A stretch of 26,137 nt of DNA from Catajapyx aquilonaris (lineage: Eukaryota), in NCBI GenBank assembly GCA_000934665.2, contig KZ538284.1, positions 62,001-88,137 on the forward strand. Direction: 5' to 3'. Numbering within the stretch: position 1 is the first letter of the stretch; each line of letters starts with the position of its first letter. Below, one piece after another: positions 430 through 13,425 of this stretch. Under the pieces are notes generated by a model that saw only the letters and a program-made list of their open reading frames with translations, was not told the origin of the DNA and ran no database searches. The position numbers and the translations under genes were made by a program.

Positions 430-545
430 TAGGTAATTTTTCTGTAACAATTTGTCTGTCGTAATGTGCACAATGACACTTATTTTCATCGAAACTGCGT
501 TTGTTTTCTGAAATAAGCTCTAACAAGTAATCTTCCTTCGTACAG

Positions 546-3500
546 GCCAGCATTTCGCAACCCTGGTTCAGAAGTGCGAGGATGAGGACATGGTCAATCG
601 TGCCCTTTTGCACTGCTTCCCGGCCTGGGCCAAGTTATTTCCTGCGTTAGTGGATGCGACGCTTGGGAAGATTGTCAACAAAGCTTTAGAAAAAGATGCG
701 GCTCATGTCCTGTGCGCACTGGCCGAGTACCTCTTTCCAGCCGCCAAACCGTCTCAGGTGACACGCCAGCTTTTGGAGTCTGAATCCTTCTGGAAGCTAG
801 TGCAGGAAGGGTGCTGCAGCCAAGATTCGTGTCAGAGGAAGAGAGCACAGTTCCTTCTGAAGCGAGCAGTGGACAGCTGCAAATCCGGAAAGATTCGTGT
901 CACGTGCACGGCTTTCCGGTGGGACCCATCAGCTGCAGCTATTGAAGAGTGGACAAATATACTGGGTATTCTACAGGTAATCACCGCAATTAAAGTACTG
1001 ACTGCCGTAGTGTAATTATTAAGGAAATTGTCAGTTACGGTTGACTCAATCCTATACAAATTACTCTGTGTAATTGGTAGGATCAATTAAAAATTCCTCA
1101 GCACTACAGGAGTATCATTACGTAGCAATTACAGTAATTAAGCATAATGAGACTCTCGTGTGAATATGTCCAATAATTTTGCTTAATTTCGCAGGTTTTG
1201 GAGGAAAAGCAAGTGCACGTGATCAAGCCTGTACTGGGCAAATTAAATGCCGTGCTGGAGGCAGCCACGTCTGAACGACTGGACCTATCCTGGTACTTTC
1301 TACTACTGGGACGTACTTTCATTCACGAGAGTGGATTCATAGTCCGCTGGGGTGTGGTTCAGTTTTTGTCTGGATCGTGGTGTAAATGTGACGCAGTTGA
1401 AAGCTTCATCATGGGTCCGCTGTTGCAAACACTGAGCCAGCCAATGCTGTACAGTGACGATCAGGTCATTGACGCCTTGCTATCCTTTTTCGAGAGGATA
1501 TGGGACGGAAAGCAAGAATGGGCGGCGCAATTTTTGCCTCAGTTTCTGGATGCCGTGAGCGGAACACCTCGTGACCCACTTGCCCTGTTTTATATCGTCA
1601 AAGCATTGAACCGTGTCCCTTCTGTCCAGTGCAGTTCTGGAATTTTGAGGGCATTGAAAGAGACATTGTCGACATCGGTTCAGACTCGAAGCGGACTTCT
1701 GCGACTGGCCCTTCATCGTATTCTGGTGTTGGAGCTGCCTGTCCGGTTCTTGGATATGTCCAGCGTGGATCTGGATGAAATGGCCTCGCTACTCGGATGC
1801 TGCTCCTCCAGTCCCAGAGCCAACGTCAAAGCATGGAACAACATGTCTGGCTGGTTGAAGAATGCTGTCACATCAGATGCCGCTGCGGAATTTGTCTCTC
1901 TTCATTTCAATGGGTATTGTATTATCATAATATTGTGTTACGTATGACTGTTGCTGAATCTACTTCACAGAAATTCCAATCGAGTGGATGTCCATTCAGC
2001 TGTCCACATGTTCCTGCTTCTCTCCGATGCACAGTTGATTGATATGAACTCTTTCGTGTCACCCCTTCTGGACAACTTGGACGTATCTCCAGACCGGCTT
2101 TACGGCTGCATTGATATGGCATGTAAATCTCTGAAATTTCTAATTTGCCTGATGGAAGAAGCGCAGCACATGGACAGTTCTGTCCAAAACGCAATCAATT
2201 CCTTAATCGCTAAGAGAACAGACAGCCTCGTGCAGATGGCGCATCGAATGTGGTCTCCTGGAGTAACCAATTTGGACGACATGGACAATCTGGAAGTGGT
2301 GTTCACTTTTCTGGAGTCTGTCAGACCACTTCTGCCGATGGAGGCTGAACAAAGCATCTCGCGTGTGGCGCTAGAAAAAGCAAGCAACGTAAACTCGCAG
2401 ACTCCGATGGAGTACTACGTGGGAATTAAAGCTATCGGCTGGCTCGTAGCACACCCTCACGGAATTATGGTTTCAGAAATAATCCTAAAGCAGTCCTTGA
2501 AGCCAAAATGGGGGAAATTAAGTTCTCGAATTACATGTAGCTTGTGGAACAGCTGGAGCAATCACTTGAGATATGCTGGCGGCGCCAGTTTTTCCAAGGG
2601 AAAGTTGAAGTCCCTTCTGGACGATGCGCTGGACTCGCTTCTTACTGGCAGCCACGAGAGTCTCCCTCACATAATGGAATGCCTTCAGTTCGTGCTTCCA
2701 AGTCTTGCTCTCGGAAGTGGAAACATGTGGAGCACTTGCGAAGCGGCACTGGACTCATGCTGGAAAGCCTGTCTGCAGCTGAGGAAAAACCGTGCCTTCT
2801 GGACCACCGCCAGCAGCTTTGTCCGCATGGCTTTCCATCCGAAGCTGTTGTCCGAGCCGCATTTTCAGGACATTGCAACGAAGGTATAATTTTTTGCTTC
2901 GTGTGAATTTGCGTTAACTATTTTCCTGCTATTCCAGTACGGCCTGCTGATCTTGAGCCACGGAGAGAACATCCGGGGACTGGCTAACCTTCTCCTGGAC
3001 CATCTAACCACATCAATCCAGGACGGGCTGCTGGACATATCCGGCATATCCCCAGACGTCCTATTGGAAGCCGTTGTGTTTGGTCCGCTTCTGCGCAAAG
3101 ACCATCGTCTTCTGGACAGAACTTGCGAGAGGATTGCGTCAGAAGGAGAAGACTTCAGCGACACAGTCCCGGGAAGTCATCAAGCCAACTCCATGGTGCG
3201 AGTGGCGGCCTCGGAAATACTCTTGCAAATGGATGGTCCTGCAGCGCAGGGCATGTGCATCTTGATTCTCTCCAGAATGAAGCAGGAGAGAGAAAGGAGA
3301 CGGCGGTACTTTGGCGACTCGACCACGCATCGAGTTCTGCACCGTTGCATGCAGGCACTTCTCATCCTCCAGCCGTCCCTCACTGCGGACGCGTCCTGTC
3401 AGCTGATGGAAGCCGTGTCGCAACAACTGACGGAGGAGAACTCGCAGCCTAGCGTGCGGTACATGCAAGAGTGGCTACTAGTGCGTGTAATGGTCCAACA

Positions 3501-4834
3501 TGAGAAATTGAGGGAGAGGCTGTGGTGTTGCTTCGAGAGGTCCACCGAAGAGAAGGTGGGAAGCCTGGTGTCATTTGTGTCCGTGGCTGTTCATCTTGCT
3601 CGATGCTTAGACGATAACAAGTTCCTGGAAAAGTGCATACAAAACATTCTGCCGTGGTGCATGGCTCAAAACTTCAATGTCCGAGTTTATTCGCAGGTTA
3701 GTTGGAAGTTCCGTCTCGAATAGACTGAGAAATTAACATGTTTTTTCCATTCCAGGTGGCTCTCGGCAAGCTGTGGGAAGTTGCTAAAGGCACGACTCGT
3801 ATCCTGGAGAAGTATGATGCGGTGGTCGTCTGCCTCCAGCGACATGAGTCCGTGCAGGGCAATGCAGCTCGGAATCTTCACAAGCTCCAGGAAGACTTCT
3901 ACTTTTCAACGTTCCACCCGATGCATCATTTCTCGGCGCAAACCATCTTCTACGAACTTCCTCGGCTGGCCCGAATATCCTGCGACGAATGGATTCTGCC
4001 TGAACTGTTTTCGGACATGCCCAGACTTCCGAAACTCAACCCAACCCACGATCTTGAAGGGTGTGAGTCGGCCCAATGGGTGGTGAAGGCCGCTGGCGAG
4101 ACCGAGTTGGACGAGTGCGCAGACGCTGACTTCCAGGTGAAGATCTCGCCATGCAAAGGCATGGAGGAGCTTGTTGGGAGCGCCCAGCGTGGAAGGCCAC
4201 CTCCCAGCTCCTCCCAACTGGTGCTGGTGGCATCTCTGATTGAGCGCATGCCCAACTTGGGTGGGCTGTGCCGCACATGCGAGGCATTCGGAGTGAGCAA
4301 GCTGGTGGTGGGAAGCCTTAGGTGCGTCCAAGACCAGCAGTTCCGCAACCTGAGTGTGTCTGCCGAGAGGTGGGTGTCTCTGGAGGAAGTGCCGGTTCAC
4401 TCCCTACCAGACTTCATGAAGAGCATGAAGCAGAAGGGGTATCTCCTGGTGGGTGCCGAGCAGACGGCAAGGAGCACGGAGCTGCACCAGTTCAAGTTTC
4501 CTGCCAAGACGCTGCTTCTACTTGGGTAAATACATTTTCATAATGACATCGTGTATCGGAAAGTTACAGTCAAGTCTACATGGGCCAGTTGCGTTCAAGA
4601 GTAGTTCGCTCAACTTTGTTCACGTCTGGCCCCGCAGGTTATTACACCGTCAGTAAACGTTTGTTTTCTCTAATCCACAGAAATGAAAAGGAAGGAATTC
4701 CAGTTGAGATACTGGGGCTTCTGGATAAGTGCGTCAACATTCCCCAGCATGGATTCATCCGCTCTCTGAACGTCCATGTCGCTGGAGCTCTGTTTGTGTG
4801 GGAACACACTCGGCAGAACCTGTCTTCTAAATAA
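546..4834 (+). CDS. TARBP1: TARBP1/Trm3-like SpoU (SPOUT) tRNA Gm18 2'-O-methyltransferase, 5' part probably outside the window
   Basis: Phase-consistent GT-AG exons 546-976, 1195-1913, 1971-2883, 2938-3696, 3756-4525, 4681-4834. Long helical N-terminal region, then C-terminal SpoU motifs [58 protein letters not shown]. Confidence 0.93.
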
Positions 4835-5192
4835 TCGCTGGCTATTTCGTAAAAATGTACATAATGGAGTATCTTTTGGAATACAATTTTATATAAACAT
4901 GTAGCAGCATTTCTACTGGCGTGTCACCAGTGGTTAAGGTTATGAGGATCAAGACAGCTTTATGCTATTTGCACGGCAATATTTATTATTAAATTGCAAA
5001 ATACGTGGTACGTTATTTACAACTGAATTATCAGCTTCCAGTCACTGCCGATGTCTCGCGCATCTCTTTTCATACTTGAGGGCCTTCCGTCCATTCGATG
5101 ATGATGACGTTGAATCTGCATCAAGAAAAGTGACAATGTAACACGAGCCTACCCAATAAGTGATTGCTCTAAAACGTTGCAAATGAATCGGC

Positions 5193-5275
5193 GCTGCTCA
5201 GTAAAATGCGGTAACAAAACAACTGTACGTTATCACAGTATTCATAGGTGTCCCAAGTTGGTTCATCACAGCAGC
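5193..5275 (-). ncRNA. C/D box snoRNA, SNORD58-like (type A)
   Basis: GCTGCT-GTGATGA (box C)...CTTGGGACACCT-ATGA (D')...GTGATAA (C')...CTGA (D)-GCAGC with a terminal stem. Guide is antisense to conserved 28S AGGUGUCC(C/U)AAG. Box D is 82 nt from the acceptor. Confidence 0.88.
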
Positions 5276-5502
5276 TCATGCATTCAATGGAGGCGAGAAA
5301 CGAGCAGGACACAATGGTAATACCTGAAATGAGTTTTCTCCGTGGTCCCCTTCAGGTTGCTGCAGCAGATATCCTTCAAAAACTTGCACATCGCCCAGGG
5401 GCAATACTTCAGTTCGTAACACGGATGGCACAAACCTGGAAGTAAGATTGCCGAATGTATAAAACTGACTGGTATAACAGCCGACTTTTGCCGAGCTATA
5501 CA

Positions 5503-5590
5503 GAGCTCCTCAGTACAATCGGTAACAAAACAACTGTGTTTTAATCACATTATTCATTGGGTGTCCCAAGTTGGTTCATCACAGCAGCTC
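5503..5590 (-). ncRNA. C/D box snoRNA, SNORD58-like (type A, shifted guide)
   Basis: Box C GTGATGA 5582-5576; guide CTTGGGACACCCA-ATGA; box D CTGA 5513-5510; GAGCT/AGCTC stem; 74 nt from the acceptor. Confidence 0.85.
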
Positions 5591-5787
5591 ATGCATTCAA
5601 TCAACGAGGATGAGAAATTAGCACGAAACAATGTTAATACCTGAAATGAGTTCCCTGTGATGTTGGCGTAGCCGATATCCTTCAAAAACTTGCTGTCCAC
5701 CACTCCTTGGACTCTGCAAAAAATGACCATTTATAAAATCGCAGTTCAAAATGGCCTATTTTTATCATATTTAGACAAGGGAAGGAA

Positions 5788-5876
5788 TGTGCTCAGGACC
5801 ACGTAGGTCAATGTGATCTGTTTCCGTTTGAGATCAGGCGTCAGAGGTGTCCCAAGAAAATACTCGTCACTGCACA
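5788..5876 (-). ncRNA. C/D box snoRNA, SNORD58-like (type B)
   Basis: TGTGC stem, variant box C GTGACGA, guide TTCTTGGGACACCT-CTGA (D'), internal hairpin, box D CTGA 5796-5793; 79 nt from the acceptor. Paralog of 9964-10048. Confidence 0.8.
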
Positions 5877-6205
5877 ACTTCATGCACAATTAATGATCAT
5901 GCCAATTGAATCAAATCTTCATGCGAGGTCCACACTTCGTCAATGGAAATCAAATCCTTCAACATGTTACTAGTCAATTTTTGCTGAACCGCTTGAAGAT
6001 TTGAGTCTTACTAGTTTTAATGAAAATGTGTGGTAAAACAATTATGCAATTTCCAGCTTACCATAATCAGGAGAAGCCAGGGACGATCTTTTCCAGGCCA
6101 TGGACATTTCAGTTCGTAACATGGATGGCATAACCTGGAAGTAAGATTGCCGAGTGAATAAAACTGACTTGTACAACGACCGACTTTAGCAAACGAAACT
6201 GTACA

Positions 6206-6292
6206 GAGCTCCTCAGTAAATGCGGTAACAAAACAACTGTGTTTAATCACATTAATCATTGGGTGTCCCAAGTTGGTTCATCATAGCAGCTC
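6206..6292 (-). ncRNA. C/D box snoRNA, SNORD58-like (type A, shifted guide)
   Basis: Box C ATGATGA 6284-6278; guide CTTGGGACACCCA-ATGA; box D 6216-6213; GAGCT stem; 78 nt from the acceptor. Confidence 0.85.
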
Positions 6293-6543
6293 ATTTGTGA
6301 GTAACAATCACACAATGTCACAAACTCGAAGCATCTAAGGTTTATTTTTTAAAAAAAGGCACCGAAGGTAAAACAAATTCATCATATCCTTACCTTCATT
6401 AGGAGTCATCAATATCCAGGGATTATCTTTTTCAAGCCTGTACGGGTACTCGTTAAGATGGATGGCACAGACCTGGAATTAAAGTTGCAATGTCAGCAAA
6501 ACTGGCTTGTACAACGGCCGACTTTAGCAAACGGAGCTGTACA

Positions 6544-6630
6544 GAGCTCCTCAGTAATTGCGGTAACAAAACAACTGTGTTTAATCACATTAATCATTGG
6601 GTGTCCCAAGTTGGTTCATCATAGCAGCTC
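6544..6630 (-). ncRNA. C/D box snoRNA, SNORD58-like (type A, shifted guide)
   Basis: Box C ATGATGA 6622-6616; guide CTTGGGACACCCA-ATGA; box D 6554-6551; GAGCT stem; 78 nt from the acceptor. Confidence 0.85.
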
Positions 6631-6807
6631 ATTCGTATGAAAGGGCGAAACAATGTGTTTCAACTAATAAATCAACAAGTACCTGAAAGTGAGGTCCTTC
6701 CACAAGACGATCGTCCAGAGAATTAACCTTCCTGCGAAATGGATTTAAAGTACAAATTATTACACAGCCGCTGGCTTGCACGTTTCGTTACTATGCAGGT
6801 GACACAA

Positions 6808-6894
6808 TGTGCTCAGTATCACATGTGCCCATGTGATGTGATTGTCTCTGATCAGGATTCAGGTTGTCTCAAGGTAAATAATCATCACGGCACA
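6808..6894 (-). ncRNA. C/D box snoRNA, diverged type B paralog
   Basis: TGTGC/GCACA stem, box C GTGATGA 6888-6882, guide CCTTGAGACAAC-CTGA (D'), hairpin ATCACATG/CATGTGAT, box D 6816-6813; 81 nt from the acceptor. Confidence 0.82.
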
Positions 6895-7335
6895 ACTTCC
6901 GTATACTGATTCATTGGCACGTTGCACCGAAAACCAAGCCAAATTGCTTACCTTCAACATTCCATGCGGTGGCAGGTCACAAGCCTCGTCGTCTGGTATC
7001 CACCAGATGGAGCTGAAATATTTCGCATTACAGTTACTTGGAAGAGTAATATCAATTACTTGCTGTACTTACCAAACTGGTACGATGCAGAGGAAATGTA
7101 TTTCAAGAAACACTGGTTCAATGATATCAACATGTTTTAATTAAATTAGCCCTACCAATCAGATGGAGTCAACCAAATTTGTGAGTAAAAGTACAGAAAA
7201 TTTGTTATTAAACTTTATGTACGAAATGAAACATTCAAGTGACACAGAAGCCAAGCTCTTTGCAACGTTATGCGATTAAATTGTTATGCAGTCATCAAGG
7301 TCCCAATCCTGAGGAACGACGCTGTTGAGATCTCT

Positions 7336-7353
7336 TCAACGCAAAGTGTTCAC
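7336..7353 (-). CDS. CCT4: Second (distal) copy of the CCT4 last coding exon, VNTLR-stop
   Basis: CTTTTCCTTCAG|GTG AAC ACT TTG CGT TGA: strong acceptor, same phase and same peptide as the 7597-7580 exon. Confidence 0.8.
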   Translation of the reverse strand: MNTLR

Positions 7354-7425
7354 CTGAAGGAAAAGATGTAAAATTACTCTCGATTGGAAAAGCAATCGTC
7401 AAGTGCCTTGCTACAATGGACATCA

Positions 7426-7499
7426 ATTTGCTCAGATATCCTAAGCCATAAAATATCACGAATTGTCAAATAAGTTCGTCAGAATTCATCACAGCAAAT
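7426..7499 (-). ncRNA. C/D box snoRNA, target not identified
   Basis: ATTTGC/GCAAAT terminal stem, box C GTGATGA 7492-7486, D'-like TTGA and C'-like GTGATAT, box D CTGA 7435-7432; 78 nt upstream of the 7354 acceptor. Confidence 0.85.
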
Positions 7500-7579
7500 A
7501 AAATGGTTCAACAAAATAATGAAGCAACAACGAAAGATACTCACCATATCACTGGTTATGAAATACTGGTGCGATTCCG

Positions 7580-10500
7580 TCAACGAAGTGTGTTCACCTG
7601 AAGAAAGAATAGCCAATCAAGATCTCGGCAACATGCACATTTTTGCTACTACGAACATCAAGCACTCACAATGTCATCAATCTTAAGGATGCTGCGAACG
7701 GTCTCAGTTGCCAATGTAACGGCGCTAGTTGACACTAGCAGCGGCTGCACCACATGTTCCTCCAGAATATTGGTAATGAAACCCTGAATCAAGAATACAT
7801 CTGTCAGTTGATTGTAGCATGTAATAAGGTCAGCTTCGGCCTGCGTTGGGACAGCGGCATAACTTGCTCCATAAAGAGCTAGTTACCTTGCGAATGTTGA
7901 TCCCGGCTGTAGCCTCCCCCCTGGAGTGCCGGTTTCTGAGCTCCGTCACAGTGGCAATGGGGTTAAGGCCAGCATTCTCTGCAAGTGTGCATGGGATGAC
8001 CTCCAGGGCCTGGGCAAAGGCCTTCCAGCAGTGGCCATCTAAGCCAGTCAGGGTCTGCGCTTTTTCAGCCAGACGGAGGGAAGTCTCGATCTCTGGTGCC
8101 CCGCCACCTGCTATTATGTAGCGCTTCTTCACCAGGCACCGGATGACGCACAGTGCATCATGAAACGACCTCTCTGCCTCCTCCAGGACCAGCTTGTTGC
8201 TACCCCTGAGCATTATGGTCACAGTGCGACCTGCATTCTGGATGCCTGTTACCTATCCAGCCCCAGAAAAATTTAAAAAACGAGCATGTTACACTTGATC
8301 TTAGAGCGTTGGGTGGGGACTATGCCTGTAGCACAAAGGAAGCTCAGCACATGCTTGGAGGTTGCCTTGGTTCTCTTCAGCTTGATTCAGACAAGTCTGG
8401 TGAAATATTCATCCCTGCTTCCTATTTCAAAAAAAATGAAATCGTCTACCCGATATGATTTATGCTTCCTGATAAGACTCGGAGTAACTGAAAAGTCGAT
8501 GTGAAATCTTCAGTGGCAGTAAAACCTGTCATTCTGCCAAACCTGCTCATAACGAACTCATGCTTATCCCAACATTACACATCCAGTCGACTTCATTTTG
8601 ATATGTGGGTACTACCTGCAAGACGAATATTCCTACTTTCCAATAATCCGGACCTTTGCAGCTAACTTCCCAAGCACACTAAAACCTGTTTGAACAAGTC
8701 ATTGCATAGAGCAAAACTTTTGTTTCATCGCAACAGAGGATTTTCAGCGCATTTTTGCCTTACGTAACAGAAACCATGTCTGCAAGTAATTATTTTTGCA
8801 GAATGGAGCAAGCCTCCCGCAGACTTTTGTGTATGCAAATACCCACTGCACGCATCATTGTAATGCACAGTAACAAGCATGATGCAATCCCAAAGGTTTG
8901 ACACTGTCCACATGGACTGTAAGCACATTTTCCCAACAATCAATTATCAGCAACAATGTACGTCACAATGAAAGGAAGCATAAATCCCCAGCAGCAGACA
9001 GTATTTGAAAGAGTGGCATGCGAAACCCATCAATTCACTTACCTTGACCATCTTCGAGGATCCCATGCTGACCTCCTCCACCAGCTCTGCATTGGACAGA
9101 TTCTCAGGAAGGAAGTGGTCGAGACTTGCAATGGGTCTGCATCCCAGAGTCTGAAATGACACGGCAATGCACATTTTAACTGCTTTCCTAATAGTTACGC
9201 TTCCTCTCTACTAACCTTGCACACAAACTCAATGTCTTCCCTCTCAATGTCCTTCACAACCAGAATCTTCATTTTGTGGAGGAAGTGAATGGCCAAGTCG
9301 GACAGTGCATCTCGAAGAATAGACTTCTGAACCAGCAGCACATTGCAGCCAGCCTTCTTGACCTGCTTCACCGCATTCAGAATGTATGCTCGCTCCTCAC
9401 GGAGGATGCGGTCCATGGCAGCATAATCTGATACGATCACATCGCTCTGCATCTGTTTGCAGCAGAAAAGAACCGGCGTGAATCAAACATCACTAGCAGC
9501 ACACTGGAGTAAATGGGCAAGAACTCACATCAGTCTTGGGTGGGGAAATGCAGAACTGAATGAGGCCGATCTTAGCCTTCTCAATCTTCTTGGGTCCTTC
9601 CGACCCAGCACTCTTATGGCTGAACAAGAGGCCGTCAATGAGCTGGGCATCCTCAAGGGTGCCGCCCAACGACTTCATAACCTTCACATCCCTCAAATCG
9701 ACGTTGGTCTCCTGCACAGCTGAAGCACCCTCACCAGTGCCTCCAGAAGCACCACAAAGGCGGAGGACTGCATCCACTGCCAGCGGAGCCAGCTGTGACG
9801 ACTGCTGAGACACAACCTGTAGCAAGAATAGTCAACAAACTTCGTTACTGACAGTACTTCAAGCATGTCAAAACCTAGCTGTGCGTGATTTTTATATTGC
9901 AAAATTTTCCCAGCAAGCGCAAGACATGAATATTTTTCATCAAATTATTTCTGGTCTCCTGCATGCTCAGGGCCAGGTTGGTCAACCTGGCCTGTTTCCG
10001 TTTGAGATCAGGGTTCAGAGGTGTCCCAAGAAAATATTCATCATCGCACACAGGTATTCATTAAAATGACCGTTACTAATTTCATTGCAATTATATTGTG
10101 CGCGTTACATCCCCCCCCCAGCGGACCACTCCCTACCTTTGAGTTGAGGGAGGTGCTGGCACTCCTCAGGAGGCTGTCTCGATCCGAGAGCTCCACAGGG
10201 AGAGCCATCTCCTGCAAGATCTTTGTGGCTTCAATAGACGCCTTTCCATACGCTTCAGAGATGCTCGTTGGGTGTATCCCACGCTGGAGAAGCCTCTCTG
10301 AGGCTTCAAGGAGACTGCCGGCTAAGACCACGACGCTGGTGGTTCCATCCCCAGCCTCCGTGTCTTGTGCCTTGGAGAGTTCCACCAGCATCTTGGCTGC
10401 TGGATGCATCACATTCATCTGCTTCAGGATGGTGGCTCCGTCGTTTGTGATCGTCACTTCCCCATTGGCAGCCTGGATCTGGAATTATTGTTATAGGTCT

Positions 10501-13425
10501 TCTTAATCAGAAGGGCCTCAATAGTCATTCTCAACTAAAGTAAATGCTGACGACTGGATAGTATGTGCTCAGATTAATAGCTTCGGTTTTGACATCATAT
10601 TGTCAGAAGATCCCACGATAGTTCATCATTGCACGTTTCTTTTCCTCACCCTCCAGTGCTACGAATTAGTTGTAGCTGATAGCAATAAATTCGCAATAAT
10701 TCATATTGGAAGTTGTTCCGCAAAATATTATATGAAAACATGAAAGGCAGTTTTTAAATATCTGTCCCCTGAATAGTGAAAATCATGGCTCAAAAGAATG
10801 TGTTTTTTTTTTCCGCATTTCAAATGGTCACACCAGGCACTAAAAAAGCTTCCAAATTTTAATATTCAGACTGATTATGGCCAATTACTTCAAATAAAAA
10901 TTATTTCAAAACACTGCAGAATCATTAGTGGAAGGGATCCTTTAAGGTATTCCTGTCACTTCTTGAAAGCAACAACTTGACTTTTCCACCAGTCTATTAT
11001 TAAAGAAAGGGTTTTTAGGTTCTACACACCCCCAAAAAGGGTAGGAATTTAGGCCCTAAAAACAGTCAAACCAGGCTCTTACTCGGCAGTAAAAATCAAG
11101 CAGGTCCAAATTAATTTTCATTACTATGCACTCTTACTCCTGGCCATTGAATTTTGCAGCACAGTAATCAACCAGCAGTTATTCCACATTTTCATTGGTT
11201 AGACGGCAACGCCTGTCTAACAATGCATCTGAACACATTGAAAATGACATTTTGACGTCACACCCAGTGACTGGATCACACTTGGAAAATGAAATTTCTT
11301 CTACTACCAGTTTGTCCTTATTGCCTACATACTTTTCACAGTTCGCAGGTTGATGCCTTGAACGGAAAACCCGCAAAACCTCTCGAAATTCTTCCAGAAT
11401 GGCATGAAAACGGTGGATATAGGTGAAAATAGGTGCTAAAGGCAACGGATTTCTTAGAGTGAACTGCTGGGCCCATGGCCCCGCCCCCAAACAAACTTCT
11501 CTCCTCCCTCCTCCCCAACTTCTCCCCCCCACCACTTTGGCACCATGACATGTATCCCTGCGCCGGAGCGGGAAACCTTATTCCGATGGTGCTTTTATGC
11601 GCGCCGAAAAGAAGTGCCTGGATTTCTCCTAATAAGTCGTTTAATACATGATTGATTTTAATTTATTGCTCGATGATGGGATTGTTGGGATTGTTGGGAT
11701 GGAGTAGCATAGGTCGCGGGCAAGACATGGCGACAAAACAAGAGCGAGAAGGGCATGAAACATGTTATAAAAAGTTTATTAGCGTAATTATTCCAACCTA
11801 CTGCAAAAGTATGCGGCTGCCGCGTGACCGAAGTCAGAAGCGTTTGTCTGGGTCCCACTTGGACCGGCATGTCAGGTACAGCATGACAGACACAGGCGGC
11901 AGACGAGACATGGTGGAACCACGGGTGGAACAAGAGATTCGAACGATGCTTCGAAATTACGCTGACACGGATCCCGATGCTCTTTTGTCTCTCGCCTTGA
12001 AAGTAGTCCCCATGTGGCCATATCGAACGACTTTTGCTGATTTTAATTTTTCTATTACGCTATTCTAAATAATGCTTTAGTGTTCATAAATTATGTCAGA
12101 ACCAAATAATTGATATCGGTCGAATTCCTTTTTAAAATACACCGTCAATTACATTGATGTATTTTCACCTGGCAATGGTCATACAAGCGACCCCATTGGT
12201 TCGCCCGGGGGGGCGTGTCTGTTCACTCTAAGAAATCCGTTGCCTTTAATAGGCAATTCAGGTTCCAATACCCGAAATAAGCTATTTTATGGTTTACCAA
12301 ACCACGATTTTTGAGGTCCTTGTGTTATGAAAGAGATCGATATTTTGGCTCCGATGTTCCTCCTACATAATAAACAAGATTGGCAAATCACATGGCGTGA
12401 TTTTGTGTGGATAGAGTGAACCCAGTACACCAGGGCGGGTCCCAGGAAGTTGACCACGACATGTTAGGGTCACGATTAATCCGAATATATTAACAGTTTG
12501 CCTCAATCTTTTATGGTTTAGGTCCTGATACCTGTCCACAGACGGACAACCGTTCTATGACTTTTTCCCAGAACCGAAGCAGTTTGGTGGAGTGGATAAG
12601 GTGTTCGACTGCTAATCGGGAAGTCCTGGGTTCGAGTCCCAGGGCCGGCAATCCTAACCGTGGTTATCTGTGGTTTCCCAGTCCCCCCCAGGAGAATTCC
12701 AGGATTGCTTCCGTAATTAATAGGCCACAGCCGCTTCCTTCCGTCCCTATCATATCCCAAAAAGCAAAGAGTTCCAGTCAAAACAAAATTGGGATGAACT
12801 CCCCTGCCTAAAGAGCCGCCGGCTGATAACAGGGTACGCATTATTATTATTAGTACTTTTTCCCAGATGATGAATAAGTCTAAAAAGTAGGTAAAAACCT
12901 CCATTCTCTACACTGTAAACCTGTAAAAGAGCATCACTGGTGAGTCTCGCATGGAACATCAATTTTTTAATGCTCTTCTTGTGATGCTTTTTAGCAACAA
13001 AAACGTATCACAAGGAACTATAAAAATTGATGTTCCATGAGAGACTCACCAGTGATGCTCTTTTAATGTTATCAGGTTTACAGTGTACCTAATTATATTT
13101 TAATTCCTTCCATCACCCTCCACCCAATAGGAGTAAACCAAAGGTGTCACCTTACCATCTTATCCATGCCCCTGGGACCCAGGCTGGTTCGAATCGCATC
13201 GGCCACAGCTGGAAATTTAAAACAAAAAATAAATGTAATGCATTGTTAGAAAGAATTCCCTTTGGAACAAAGGGGGGGCCATGTAAGGCCATGTTCGTCC
13301 CACGCCTTTTTCATCCTTCCCCTGACCACACCTTTTGCGGCGACGATGTTGCTGCTCCTGATCTCCGCCGCCTTGTTCTTGTCCTTGAAGGCCCCTGGGC
13401 CCTTCATGTTCGTGTTGGGGGTCAT
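7580..13425 (-). CDS. CCT4: T-complex protein 1 subunit delta (CCT4), about 539 aa
   Basis: Exons 13425-13332, 13208-13156, 10478-10137, 9816-9529, 9452-9216, 9150-9043, 8252-7887, 7783-7670, 7597-7580 (or 7353-7336) join in frame. Motifs: [78 protein letters not shown]. Confidence 0.97.
8338..8422 (-). ncRNA. C/D box snoRNA in CCT4 intron 6, predicted 18S guide
   Basis: GGAAGC/GCTTCC stem, variant box C GGGATGA, guide CACCAGACTTGT-CTGA (D') antisense to conserved 18S GCAAGUCUGGUG, box D 8347-8344; 91 nt from the acceptor. Confidence 0.85.
9964..10048 (-). ncRNA. C/D box snoRNA, SNORD58-like (type B), CCT4 intron 3
   Basis: Box C ATGATGA 10044-10038, guide TTCTTGGGACACCT-CTGA, hairpin GGCCAGGTT/AACCTGGCC, box D 9970-9967. 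Confidence 0.88.
10565..10634 (-). ncRNA. C/D box snoRNA in CCT4 intron 2
   Basis: GTGC-A-ATGATGA (C)...CTGA (D')...ATGATGT (C')...GAAGCTATTAAT-CTGA (D)-GCAC. All four boxes plus a stem; 90 nt from the acceptor. Confidence 0.88.
12573..12854 (+). mobile_element. tRNA-derived SINE in CCT4 intron 2
   Basis: A box TGGTGGAGTGG, anticodon-like arm CGACTGCTAATCG (Ser-GCT-like), B box GGTTCGAGTCC. Body GTGGTTTCCC...TAGGCCACAGCCGCTTCCTTCC resembles insect Talua/Lm1-type SINE cores (from memory). (TTA)n tail and 13-bp TSD ACTTTTTCCCAGA at 12560-12572 and 12855-12867. Confidence 0.88.
12911..13085. mobile_element. Foldback MITE with CACTG termini
   Basis: TA|CACTGTAAACCTG...CAGGTTTACAGTG|TA. Near-perfect internal inverted arms AAAAGAGCATCACTGGTGAGTCTC-CATGGAACATCAATTTTT. 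Confidence 0.85.

Follow-up and report, generated by a model that had tools for sequence, protein, structure and literature searches.

The window, i.e., the whole stretch of 26,137 nt of Catajapyx aquilonaris DNA that was analysed, carries on its minus strand a gene which, judged by its sequence, is CCT4 (TCP-1 delta). Matches to the Pfam domain Cpn60_TCP1 (PF00118) were obtained with E values of 1.4e-38 and 7.2e-43, tblastn with the query protein P0005 gave eight collinear blocks that together span its residues 7-527, and almost all of the named matches among the best 120 proteins listed are designated "T-complex protein 1 subunit delta". The highest identity in the protein search was 80%, and no protein above this value was found there.

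All of the features described below lie on the minus strand. The coding exon 7 (7887..8254) corresponds to residues 366-487 of P0005 at 79.5% identity and carries the Cpn60_TCP1 match with the E value of 1.4e-38, while the coding exon 8 (7670..7783), which was also recovered by tblastn, ends in ...SILKIDDI and has its 3' border at 7670 (...GACATT|GTGAGT). It is followed by intron 8 (7598..7669), which is 72 nt long, has GT..AG ends, closes with CAG, and contains no snoRNA.

The sole RNA evidence is one spliced contig of 2,718 nt from one run, which was treated as RNA-derived because the contig is spliced. This contig joins 7887-8254, 7670-7783, 7545-7597, and 6951-7349 with no other letters and with CT..AC ends (GT..AG on the minus strand), which includes the joint 7783|7887 between exons 7 and 8 and the skipping of intron 8, and its loose end maps to 6701-6730, across the GT..AG intron 6951-6732. 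The junctions 7670>7597, 7545>7353, and 6952>6731 all occur within this one contig, together with CCT4 exons. Contig cover is blind to isoform ratios, to the use of poly(A) sites, and to the accumulation of snoRNAs, and a de Bruijn contig may merge two overlapping transcripts, i.e., it is not equivalent to a single molecule.

The duplicated end of the coding region

Downstream of exon 8, two units of 18 nt that read VNTLR-stop are found, each behind an acceptor, at 7597-7580 (A) and 7353-7336 (B), and both acceptors have a good pyrimidine tract and an AG. Exon A (7545..7597, 53 nt), which is defined by its sequence, its translation, and the RNA contig with both joints, opens with the coding unit GTGAACACACTTCGTTGA (V N T L R stop, with the stop codon at 7582-7580), continues with 35 nt of UTR, and ends at the donor G|GTGAGT, so that exon 8 read into A gives ...IDDIVNTLR-stop. 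Exon B (6952..7353, 402 nt), a continuous piece of the RNA contig with no other letters, opens at 7353 with GTGAACACTTTGCGTTGA, which likewise encodes VNTLR-stop, and contains an ATTAAA at 7141-7136, which was located in the scan for poly(A) signals. In the observed RNA, this second copy of VNTLR-stop would be left untranslated.

Among the best 120 proteins listed, none has a CCT4 C-terminus that reads VNTLR. The protein ends in this set include VNTR, VNTIR, VNALR, and VNTLQ.

The exon borders proposed in an earlier note on this DNA were borne out, given that 7670>7597 and 7545>7353 are both present in the one contig, and the note was also right that the coding differences are all synonymous, as the comparison of A with B yields three silent changes. 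Its description of two tandem CCT4 last exons around a snoRNA holds in so far as the two VNTLR-stop copies flank a predicted C/D snoRNA, but B is spliced onward at 6952 and is not a last exon. In a similar manner, the UTRs, which it had called unrelated, do differ over most of their length, but within the 14 nt that follow the stop, 9 still match, and approximately 75 nt of the upstream intron are similar as well.

As the alignment defines it, the A/B repeat is a segmental duplication of approximately 105 nt, which takes in the tail of the intron, the 3' splice site, the 18 coding nt, and approximately 14 nt of UTR. Copy 1 lies at 7566..7662 and copy 2, which starts right after the snoRNA, at 7322..7427, both being recovered by local alignment and as repeat family D10, for which the repeat search gave 41 nt at 78% identity with a spacing of 244. 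From its ninth base onward, intron 8 is the first copy of the duplicated intron tail, aligned to the post-snoRNA part of the intron between A and B. The local alignment of A and B scored 60.5, against 26.9 +/- 5.1 with a maximum of 46 in 300 shuffles, and is thus beyond chance, with the intron-only part being marginal when taken alone (19 of the 300 shuffles score equally high).

A clean tandem unit of 244 nt was considered and rejected, given that the remainder of the UTR of A, the 5' part of the intron, and the snoRNA are unlike the downstream exon B (233 of 300 shuffles score equally). Two weak matches were also recorded and not relied on, one of them non-collinear, between the last UTR bases of A and 7127-7111 in B (13/300 shuffles), and the other in a donor region (11/300 shuffles). 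Five CCT4 loci from metagenomes (50-70% identity) gave no information on a second copy of the end peptide, with one of these loci having only 12 nt past the stop, two of them breaking frame before the true end, and the others showing no credible recurrence.

Box C/D units beyond the stop codon

The first intron past the stop codon, between A and B (7354..7544, 191 nt, GTGAGT..CAG), has borders that were read in the sequence and is skipped in the RNA contig. It contains a predicted box C/D snoRNA, here called snoRNA X (7427..7498), the prediction being based on its C box (GTGATGA, 7492-7486), its D box (CTGA, 7435-7432, with 61 nt from C to D), its terminal stem, and its position in the intron, in which 78 nt separate the end of the D box from the last base. 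The stem has 6 bp by script and 7 bp in the MFE fold (z -1.9), and it also appears as the inverted repeat I2, of 12 nt at 83%.

At gathering score, no Rfam family was matched in the whole window, i.e., neither a snoRNA nor an rRNA, and snoRNA X, which has both boxes and the stem, is likewise below this score. Of its 12 sub-threshold matches, 11 are to C/D families, and the best one, to SNORD29, reaches 27.5 bits where 48 are required for gathering, in an alignment in which the boxes and the stem match and the guide does not. The RNA contigs of the one run give no cover over 7359-7511.

The seven post-stop introns, observed or predicted, all have GT..AG ends and contain one C box/D box unit each, and the distance from the end of the D box to the end of the intron is, in order, 78, 81, 78, 78, 79, 74, and 82 nt. 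Six of these units are SNORD58-like copies, which, together with one further unit in a CCT4 coding intron, can be aligned (alignment A1) and have a common guide, CTTGGGACACC, that snoRNA X does not have. This guide, followed by a D' box, matches the consensus of SNORD58 (RF00151) and that of snoMe28S-Gm3113 (RF00531), with all of the SNORD58-like units being below the gathering threshold (best 29.1 bits vs 42).

The intron between B and T1 (6732..6951, 220 nt, GTAAGC..CAG), the borders of which were read and across which the loose end of the contig maps, carries a SNORD58-like unit with a diverged guide at ~6893-6808 (6803-6900 in its wider delimitation), the C box of which lies at 6888-6882 and the D box of which ends at 6813, leaving 81 nt of intron. 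This intron leads to the tail exon T1 (6683..6731, 49 nt), of which the start was observed through the loose end and the end is predicted at the donor GTACTT. Further copies would follow in the predicted introns T1>T2 (6682-6473; copy at 6544..6630, with its C box at 6622-6616 and its D box ending at 6551, 78 nt before the acceptor) and T2>T3 (6393-6135; copy at 6206..6292, with its C box at 6284-6278 and its D box ending at 6213, again at 78 nt), and the predicted intron T3>T4 (6061-5714) would contain a copy of a second subfamily at 5788..5875 (C box GTGACGA, D-box end 5793, 79 nt), which pairs with 9964-10050 in repeat family D5. The last two copies lie in the predicted introns T4>T5 (5640-5436; copy at 5503..5590, with its C box at 5582-5576 and its D box ending at 5510, at 74 nt) and T5>T6 (5323-5116; copy at 5193..5277, 82 nt from the intron end), the latter giving the best Rfam score for SNORD58 (E 0.0016), with a guide that matches the consensus.

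The exons T2 (6394..6472, 79 nt), T3 (6062..6134, 73 nt), T4 (5641..5713, 73 nt), and T5 (5324..5435, 112 nt) are predicted from their GT..AG borders and the sum of their lengths, and the predicted last exon, T6 (4972..5115), contains an AATAAA at 4987-4982 and has its end placed by the length of the contig. The introns A>B and B>T1 are spliced in the same contig as the CCT4 exons, and the remaining five tail junctions are predicted, their fit being one of length only: T1-T5 sum to 386 nt, and the 530 nt of the contig beyond 6951 would finish at ~4972, 10 nt past the AATAAA. This match is a consistency check rather than an observation, and T2-T6 and the poly(A) site stand as predictions.

In the post-stop RNA of 967 nt, the longest ATG ORF has 77 aa. 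An assignment of the repeats at 5100-6650 to SINE-like elements was rejected, as these are C/D snoRNA units with their exons. For the purposes of annotation, the CCT4 stop would be placed in exon A and the "repeats" at 5100-6950 would be recorded as snoRNA genes.

Interpretation of the locus

The reading that we prefer, to which a probability of about 0.6 is given, is that A is the real terminal coding exon, that the VNTLR-stop of B is an untranslated duplicate, and that the 3'UTR of this coding gene serves as a host for snoRNAs, in the manner of Drosophila minifly/Nop60B. In the one contig, exon 8 is spliced to A, which supplies VNTLR and the stop, and the donor of A is joined to the acceptor of B, with the removal of the 191-nt intron that carries one C/D snoRNA. 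Past T1 (6731), five further short exons would follow before the transcript ends at a poly(A) site around 4972, and seven post-stop introns would be removed in total, each with one C/D snoRNA at the distance favourable to splicing-coupled snoRNP assembly.

The second VNTLR-stop would then be a hitch-hiker of the duplication, which would have copied a 3' splice-site module (intron tail, pyrimidine tract, and AG) along with the 32 nt at the start of the terminal exon, and through which the snoRNA may have come to lie in a separate post-stop intron, with the protein unchanged. As a side effect, any skipping of A would be protein-neutral, and a regulated switch would not be needed to explain the sequence. 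The proximal ATTAAA in B may yield a short mRNA with just the stop-proximal junction, and the long form, in which the junctions extend to 823 nt past the stop, would be snoRNA-producing and possibly NMD-prone. The earlier note had placed the stop under the EJC-NMD threshold, which stands for the first junction, 35 nt after the stop, but the next observed junction lies at 437 nt and the five predicted ones at 486-823 nt. By the 50-55-nt rule, the long isoform would not be immune to NMD, and immunity would be confined to a short isoform with its 3' end at the ATTAAA of B, which was not observed.

The tandem position of the A and B units, at a spacing of 244 nt, might suggest that the double exon is an artefact of the assembly, such as a collapsed or duplicated haplotype, but this is extremely improbable, given that the RNA contig carries A and B in order, each spliced at its own sites, with no other letters over 938 aligned bases, and that the copies differ at 3 of the 18 coding positions and over most of their flanks. 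It is conceivable, though unlikely, that CCT4 is polyadenylated inside B, at 7141-7136, and that a second, non-coding host gene of the same orientation accounts for the tail from ~7100 to 4972, with a first exon that overlaps the CCT4 3'UTR and with the two genes merged by the assembler, while A, B, and snoRNA X would still belong to CCT4. The poly(A) signal in B is present, B is far longer, at 402 nt, than T1-T5 (49-112 nt), and a contig across two genes does not prove a single transcript, but one unbranched contig with a single mean depth spans the whole region. The fly cluster bears on both sides of this question, as it was initially annotated as a host gene in its own right, dUhg6, and later turned out to be part of the coding gene (PMC1821038).

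On the other hand, the earlier note had taken A and B for alternative terminal coding exons, both under selection, with a regulated inclusion or skipping of A that alters the 3'UTR and the snoRNA context while CCT4 is held constant. The quality of both acceptors agrees with this, and exon 8 joined to B does translate into the same protein end, so that skipping A would indeed leave CCT4 unaltered; three random changes would all be silent with P 0.014, and two neutral copies would both keep VNTLR-stop with P 0.014-0.09. However, the sole RNA over the site includes A, and of the relevant junctions, 7670>7597 and 7545>7353 are seen and 7670>7353 is in no contig, although contigs drop rare variants, and the skipping of A is thus unproven rather than excluded. 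The sizes of the two introns (72 and 191 nt) and their consensus GTGAGT donors would also fit the constitutive removal of each. The proposed change in the context that releases the snoRNA was not supported, as snoRNA X is removed with the intron RNA in either splicing pattern and its distance of 78 nt to the acceptor of B is unaltered, and the inclusion of A need not change its release. The fold around A has a z of -0.15, with 47 of 100 shuffles folding as well, and no selector-type complementarity was found around A, where just the snoRNA stem and a small palindrome were detected; an RNA structure that loops out exon A was rejected on these grounds. Nor does selection on both copies follow, given that a single neutral copy beside a constrained one retains VNTLR-stop with P 0.12-0.32, but the three silent differences leave room for it, and hence for some coding use of the acceptor of B. 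A regulated switch of this kind is rather improbable, and the earlier interpretation as a whole is partly supported. Equally doubtful is a broader proposal, in which the duplicate would be the footprint of the annexation of a snoRNA host by a housekeeping coding gene, with a new post-stop intron arising around a snoRNA while the protein was spared, B would be selected as a fail-safe coding acceptor, and the cell would shift, through the inclusion or skipping of A and the choice of poly(A) site, between a short, NMD-immune mRNA and a long, snoRNA-yielding, NMD-prone transcript, with CCT4 constant.

Under the preferred reading, i.e., a coding gene with a snoRNA-host 3'UTR and an untranslated duplicate in B, the CCT4 locus would add a clear case to the coding genes with snoRNA clusters in spliced 3'UTRs, which are known and rarely described, in an animal for which the protein search gave no close relative (80% identity at best). 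It is easy to annotate loci of this type wrongly, whether as a gene accompanied by "repeats" or as a distinct non-coding gene. The unusual detail is that a stop-bearing micro-exon and a 3' splice-site module are duplicated, with both copies in the mature RNA. If related genomes were to reveal the older copy, this could be a concrete example of the creation of a post-stop intron through the duplication of a splice-site module, and the locus could show how protein-neutral redundancy tolerates such rearrangements.

Comparison with known systems

No locus with CCT4 as a snoRNA host gene was found by title or abstract among the papers listed in the literature search, which is not proof that such a locus is unpublished. 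Tandem exon duplication with mutually exclusive use is a known arrangement, which A and B resemble in being neighbouring homologous exon starts that have their own acceptors and encode the same residues. Unlike mutually exclusive exons, A and B are found in the same mature RNA, in one contig (from which rare variants could escape), they are of 53 and 402 nt, the second copy lies past the stop, and no alternative use was seen.

Non-coding genes that host multiple snoRNAs are exemplified by the UHG/GAS5 type. As in these genes and in NMD-sensitive host transcripts (Lykke-Andersen et al. 2014, PMC4233243), short, poorly coding exons lie between introns with one snoRNA each, and a stop far upstream of many junctions predicts the NMD of the spliced by-product. 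Unlike these hosts, the tail is joined here to the full CCT4 reading frame in the assembled RNA, and NMD is a prediction. Some stop-proximal 3'UTR introns are still NMD-sensitive in vertebrates, according to Gangras et al. 2020 (PMC7310861), and the CCT4 locus is similar to these in that its first junction is 35 nt past the stop, under the 50-nt rule, and dissimilar in that the long isoform has further junctions 437-823 nt downstream.

The closest parallels were found in Drosophila mfl/Nop60B, for which the source (PMC1821038) describes a tandem C/D snoRNA cluster in 3'UTR introns, approximately 70 nt from the 3' splice sites, that is included through the use of downstream poly(A) sites. Both are housekeeping coding genes with a spliced 3'UTR, variable in the fly, that hosts tandem C/D snoRNA isoforms, with one snoRNA per intron at ~70 nt (fly) or 74-82 nt (here) ahead of the 3' splice site, and both regions may easily be taken for an independent non-coding host gene. 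In the fly, alternative poly(A) use was shown, as was the accumulation of the small RNAs, and here we infer them. Unlike in the fly locus as it is described there, the host is CCT4, and the first intron past the stop codon is delimited by a duplicate of the micro-exon that bears the stop.

The CCT4 gene and its assembled RNA

On its protein matches, the minus-strand gene is identified as CCT4: two exon translations match Pfam Cpn60_TCP1 (E 1.4e-38 and 7.2e-43), the 122-aa translation of exon 7 (7887-8254) had matches in 4,570 of 4,913 candidate proteins (E <= 0.001), and one CCT4 match, used as a tblastn query, aligned in eight collinear blocks between about 13410 and 7664. Among the best 120 of the 4,570 matches, nearly every named protein is 'T-complex protein 1 subunit delta', identity to the query is at most 80%, and the orthologues have comparable short ends (VNTR, VNTIR, VNALR, VNTLQ), VNTLR itself being the end of none of the 120.

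As read on the minus strand, exon 8 (7783-7670), which ends in ...SILKIDDI, is followed by the 72-nt GT..AG intron 8 (7669-7598), by exon A (7597-7545), which consists of GTGAACACACTTCGTTGA (VNTLR-stop) plus 35 nt and has the donor G|GTGAGT, by the 191-nt intron A>B (7544-7354), and by exon B, which starts at 7353 and opens with GTGAACACTTTGCGTTGA, translated again as VNTLR-stop. The earlier note had this structure around A and B right; apart from two corrections, what it observed is confirmed, and its interpretation is borne out in part.

The RNA evidence is one public run (share of words 0.58; kind not on record), examined over 6900-8400. A single contig of 2,718 nt (mean depth 106.8, no differing letters) joins 7887-8254, 7670-7783, 7545-7597 and 6951-7349, and all of the pieces that it skips have GT..AG ends on the minus strand; the assembled RNA therefore contains exon A, with the donor of A joined to B. 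No contig of this run covers 7359-7511 or carries the 7670-7353 joint and, given that contigs drop rare variants, the run neither shows nor excludes that A is sometimes skipped. The 341-nt region around A is no more stably folded than its shuffles (z -0.15), and its only inverted repeats are a snoRNA stem and a small palindrome. A second contig (578 nt, depth 5 vs 107), found at 8311-8400 and beyond on the minus strand, covers part of a 790-nt CCT4 intron in which a SNORD91-like unit lies, and represents unspliced precursor or a retained intron.

The duplicated segment at exons A and B

A repeat search paired 7322-7362 with 7566-7606 (41 nt, 78% identity, spacing 244 nt). By local alignment, the copy at A (7662-7566) runs from 8 nt past the exon-8 donor to 14 nt past the stop, and the copy at B (7427-7322) from the first base after the snoRNA of intron A>B to 14 nt past the stop. 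The A/B alignment scores 60.5, against 26.9 +/- 5.1 (maximum 46) in 300 shuffles; the intron part, marginal on its own (28.5 vs 21.4 +/- 3.7; 19/300 shuffles as high), is collinear with the exon match and adjoins it. The first 14 post-stop nt agree at 9/14, and past these no in-register alignment of the two copies was found. Taken together, the alignment extents and this agreement indicate a duplicated unit of about 105 nt, composed of the intron tail, a pyrimidine tract with its AG, the 18-nt coding stretch and some 14 nt of UTR. The A/B repeat first described is thus real but larger, reaching into the intron tail and UTR, and a clean 244-nt tandem repeat was rejected, the remainder being matched equally well by 233/300 shuffles.

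The UTR end of exon A (7565-7550) also weakly resembles 7127-7111 of exon B (minus), just past the ATTAAA of B (15/17 aligned positions, a 2-nt gap; 13/300 shuffles as high); if this likeness is real, the copy at A may formerly have had a longer UTR that was later deleted.

Within the 18-nt coding unit, 14/54 single changes are silent, and three random changes would all be silent with P 0.014. At divergences of 0.17, 0.25 and 0.30, two neutral copies would both retain VNTLR-stop with P 0.09, 0.03 and 0.014; where only one copy is neutral and the other constrained, the neutral one would retain it with P 0.32, 0.17 and 0.12. These probabilities support constraint on at least one copy, leaving selection on both, as the earlier note had it, unsupported.

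Post-stop introns and their box C/D units

The unit in intron A>B (7498-7427, minus) carries the C box GTGATGA and, 78 nt from the intron end, the D box CTGA, and has a 6-7-bp terminal stem. It reaches no Rfam gathering score; in a 131-base scan, 11/12 sub-threshold matches are C/D families, the best being SNORD29 (27.5 bits vs 48), where boxes and stem match but the guide does not. This snoRNA sits in excised RNA at the same distance from the acceptor of B with or without A, so inclusion of A need not change its release.

Nor is B the last exon, given that the loose end of the contig, below 6951, aligns with 6701-6730, on the far side of a 220-nt intron (6951-6732; GTAAGC..CAG, minus strand). 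The region 5100-6950 was rejected as dispersed repeats: on the minus strand, six box C/D units resembling SNORD58/snoMe28S-Gm3113 follow one another here in tandem, spaced by 313, 702 and 338 nt in the first subfamily, with short exons between them. A seventh SNORD58-like copy (9957-10056, minus; 85% identity to 5790-5876 over 87 nt) belongs to a CCT4 coding intron; by a rough exon border, its distance to the acceptor is about 150 nt. In the alignment of the seven sequences, the C and D boxes are invariant and a common guide, CTTGGGACACC, precedes the D' box, the guide having diverged in one copy (6803-6900); the common guide fits the SNORD58 consensus (29.1 bits) as well as that of Drosophila snoMe28S-Gm3113 (23.3 bits), with both scores under the gathering threshold.

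With GT..AG introns around each tail unit drawn by reading the sequence, each of the seven post-stop introns, A>B among them, contains one unit, whose D box precedes the intron end by 74-82 nt. The predicted tail exons T1 to T5 (minus, GT..AG borders) measure 49, 79, 73, 73 and 112 nt, 386 nt in sum; as 530 nt of the contig extend past 6951, 144 nt are left, which would put its end near 4972, 10 nt past AATAAA (4987-4982), as a length consistency check only. The post-stop RNA (967 nt by predicted splicing) has one 77-aa ATG ORF over the repeated exons T2-T5 (about 6472-5324, minus). A convergent multi-exon plus-strand gene (500-4834), ending in a SpoU methylase domain (PF00588, E 8e-16, ORF 3729-4529), faces with its 3' end the predicted poly(A) site at about 4972.

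Further C/D-like units of the CCT4 coding introns (9957-10056, 10557-10642 and 8325-8432, minus strand) include a 61-nt C-to-D unit with weak SNORD36/SNORD107 matches and a SNORD91-like one (30 bits vs 51, stem GGAAGC/GCTTCC). A large CCT4 intron holds a near-perfect hairpin of about 140 nt (12925-13069), which on either strand gives sub-gathering matches to several plant miRNA-precursor models (MIR6425, for example, 60.6 vs 142 bits) and which appears to be a MITE-type inverted repeat rather than a miRNA gene; a weak tRNA-model match in the same intron (12585-12642, plus; 24.5 bits vs 29) is possibly a tRNA-derived repeat.

In the assembled RNA the A|B junction follows the stop in A after 35 nt, as the argument for NMD escape had stated, but the observed B|T1 junction comes at 437 nt past this stop and the predicted ones at 486-823 nt, so immunity would apply at most to a short isoform ending at the ATTAAA of B (7141-7136), which was not observed in the contigs of the one run. 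PMC7310861 reports that vertebrate stop-proximal 3'UTR introns can still be NMD-sensitive, and passages of PMC4233243 that host-gene transcripts in human cells are NMD-sensitive by-products.

A proposed origin and its comparison with known systems

The reading favored here, at a probability of about 0.6, is that exon A would be the working terminal coding exon and intron A>B the first of seven post-stop introns releasing C/D snoRNAs through splicing-coupled processing, the VNTLR-stop of B being an untranslated by-product of a segmental duplication that would have supplied a second 3' splice-site module. The spacing between snoRNA and acceptor fits the known optimum, placed at about 50 nt before the branch point in passages of a review (PMC8162545), and in the fly cluster at about 70 nt from the 3' splice site (PMC1821038). 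It is rather unlikely that the tail is a separate overlapping host gene, a possibility which would leave A, B and the snoRNA between them unaffected. The protein-neutral switch of the earlier note, in which A is included or skipped, appears improbable, there being no 7670-7353 contig and no sign of an RNA switch, and an assembly artefact is hardly credible, being contradicted by a contig that carries A and B spliced in order.

The favored reading, of a working exon A followed by snoRNA-releasing introns, bears on the correct annotation of the CCT4 locus, which is also a possible example of intron creation via a duplicated splice-site module. A narrow literature search, by title or abstract, found no CCT4 locus as a snoRNA host gene. 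The nearest described case is Drosophila minifly/Nop60B, for which passages of PMC1821038 describe a variable 3'UTR with four C/D snoRNA isoforms and two related small RNAs, one per intron and each some 70 nt upstream of its 3' splice site, in a cluster that is reached via downstream poly(A) sites and was initially taken as a separate non-coding host gene. What sets the CCT4 locus apart from the descriptions in these passages, and in those of PMC4233243, is the duplicated stop-bearing micro-exon that bounds its first post-stop intron.
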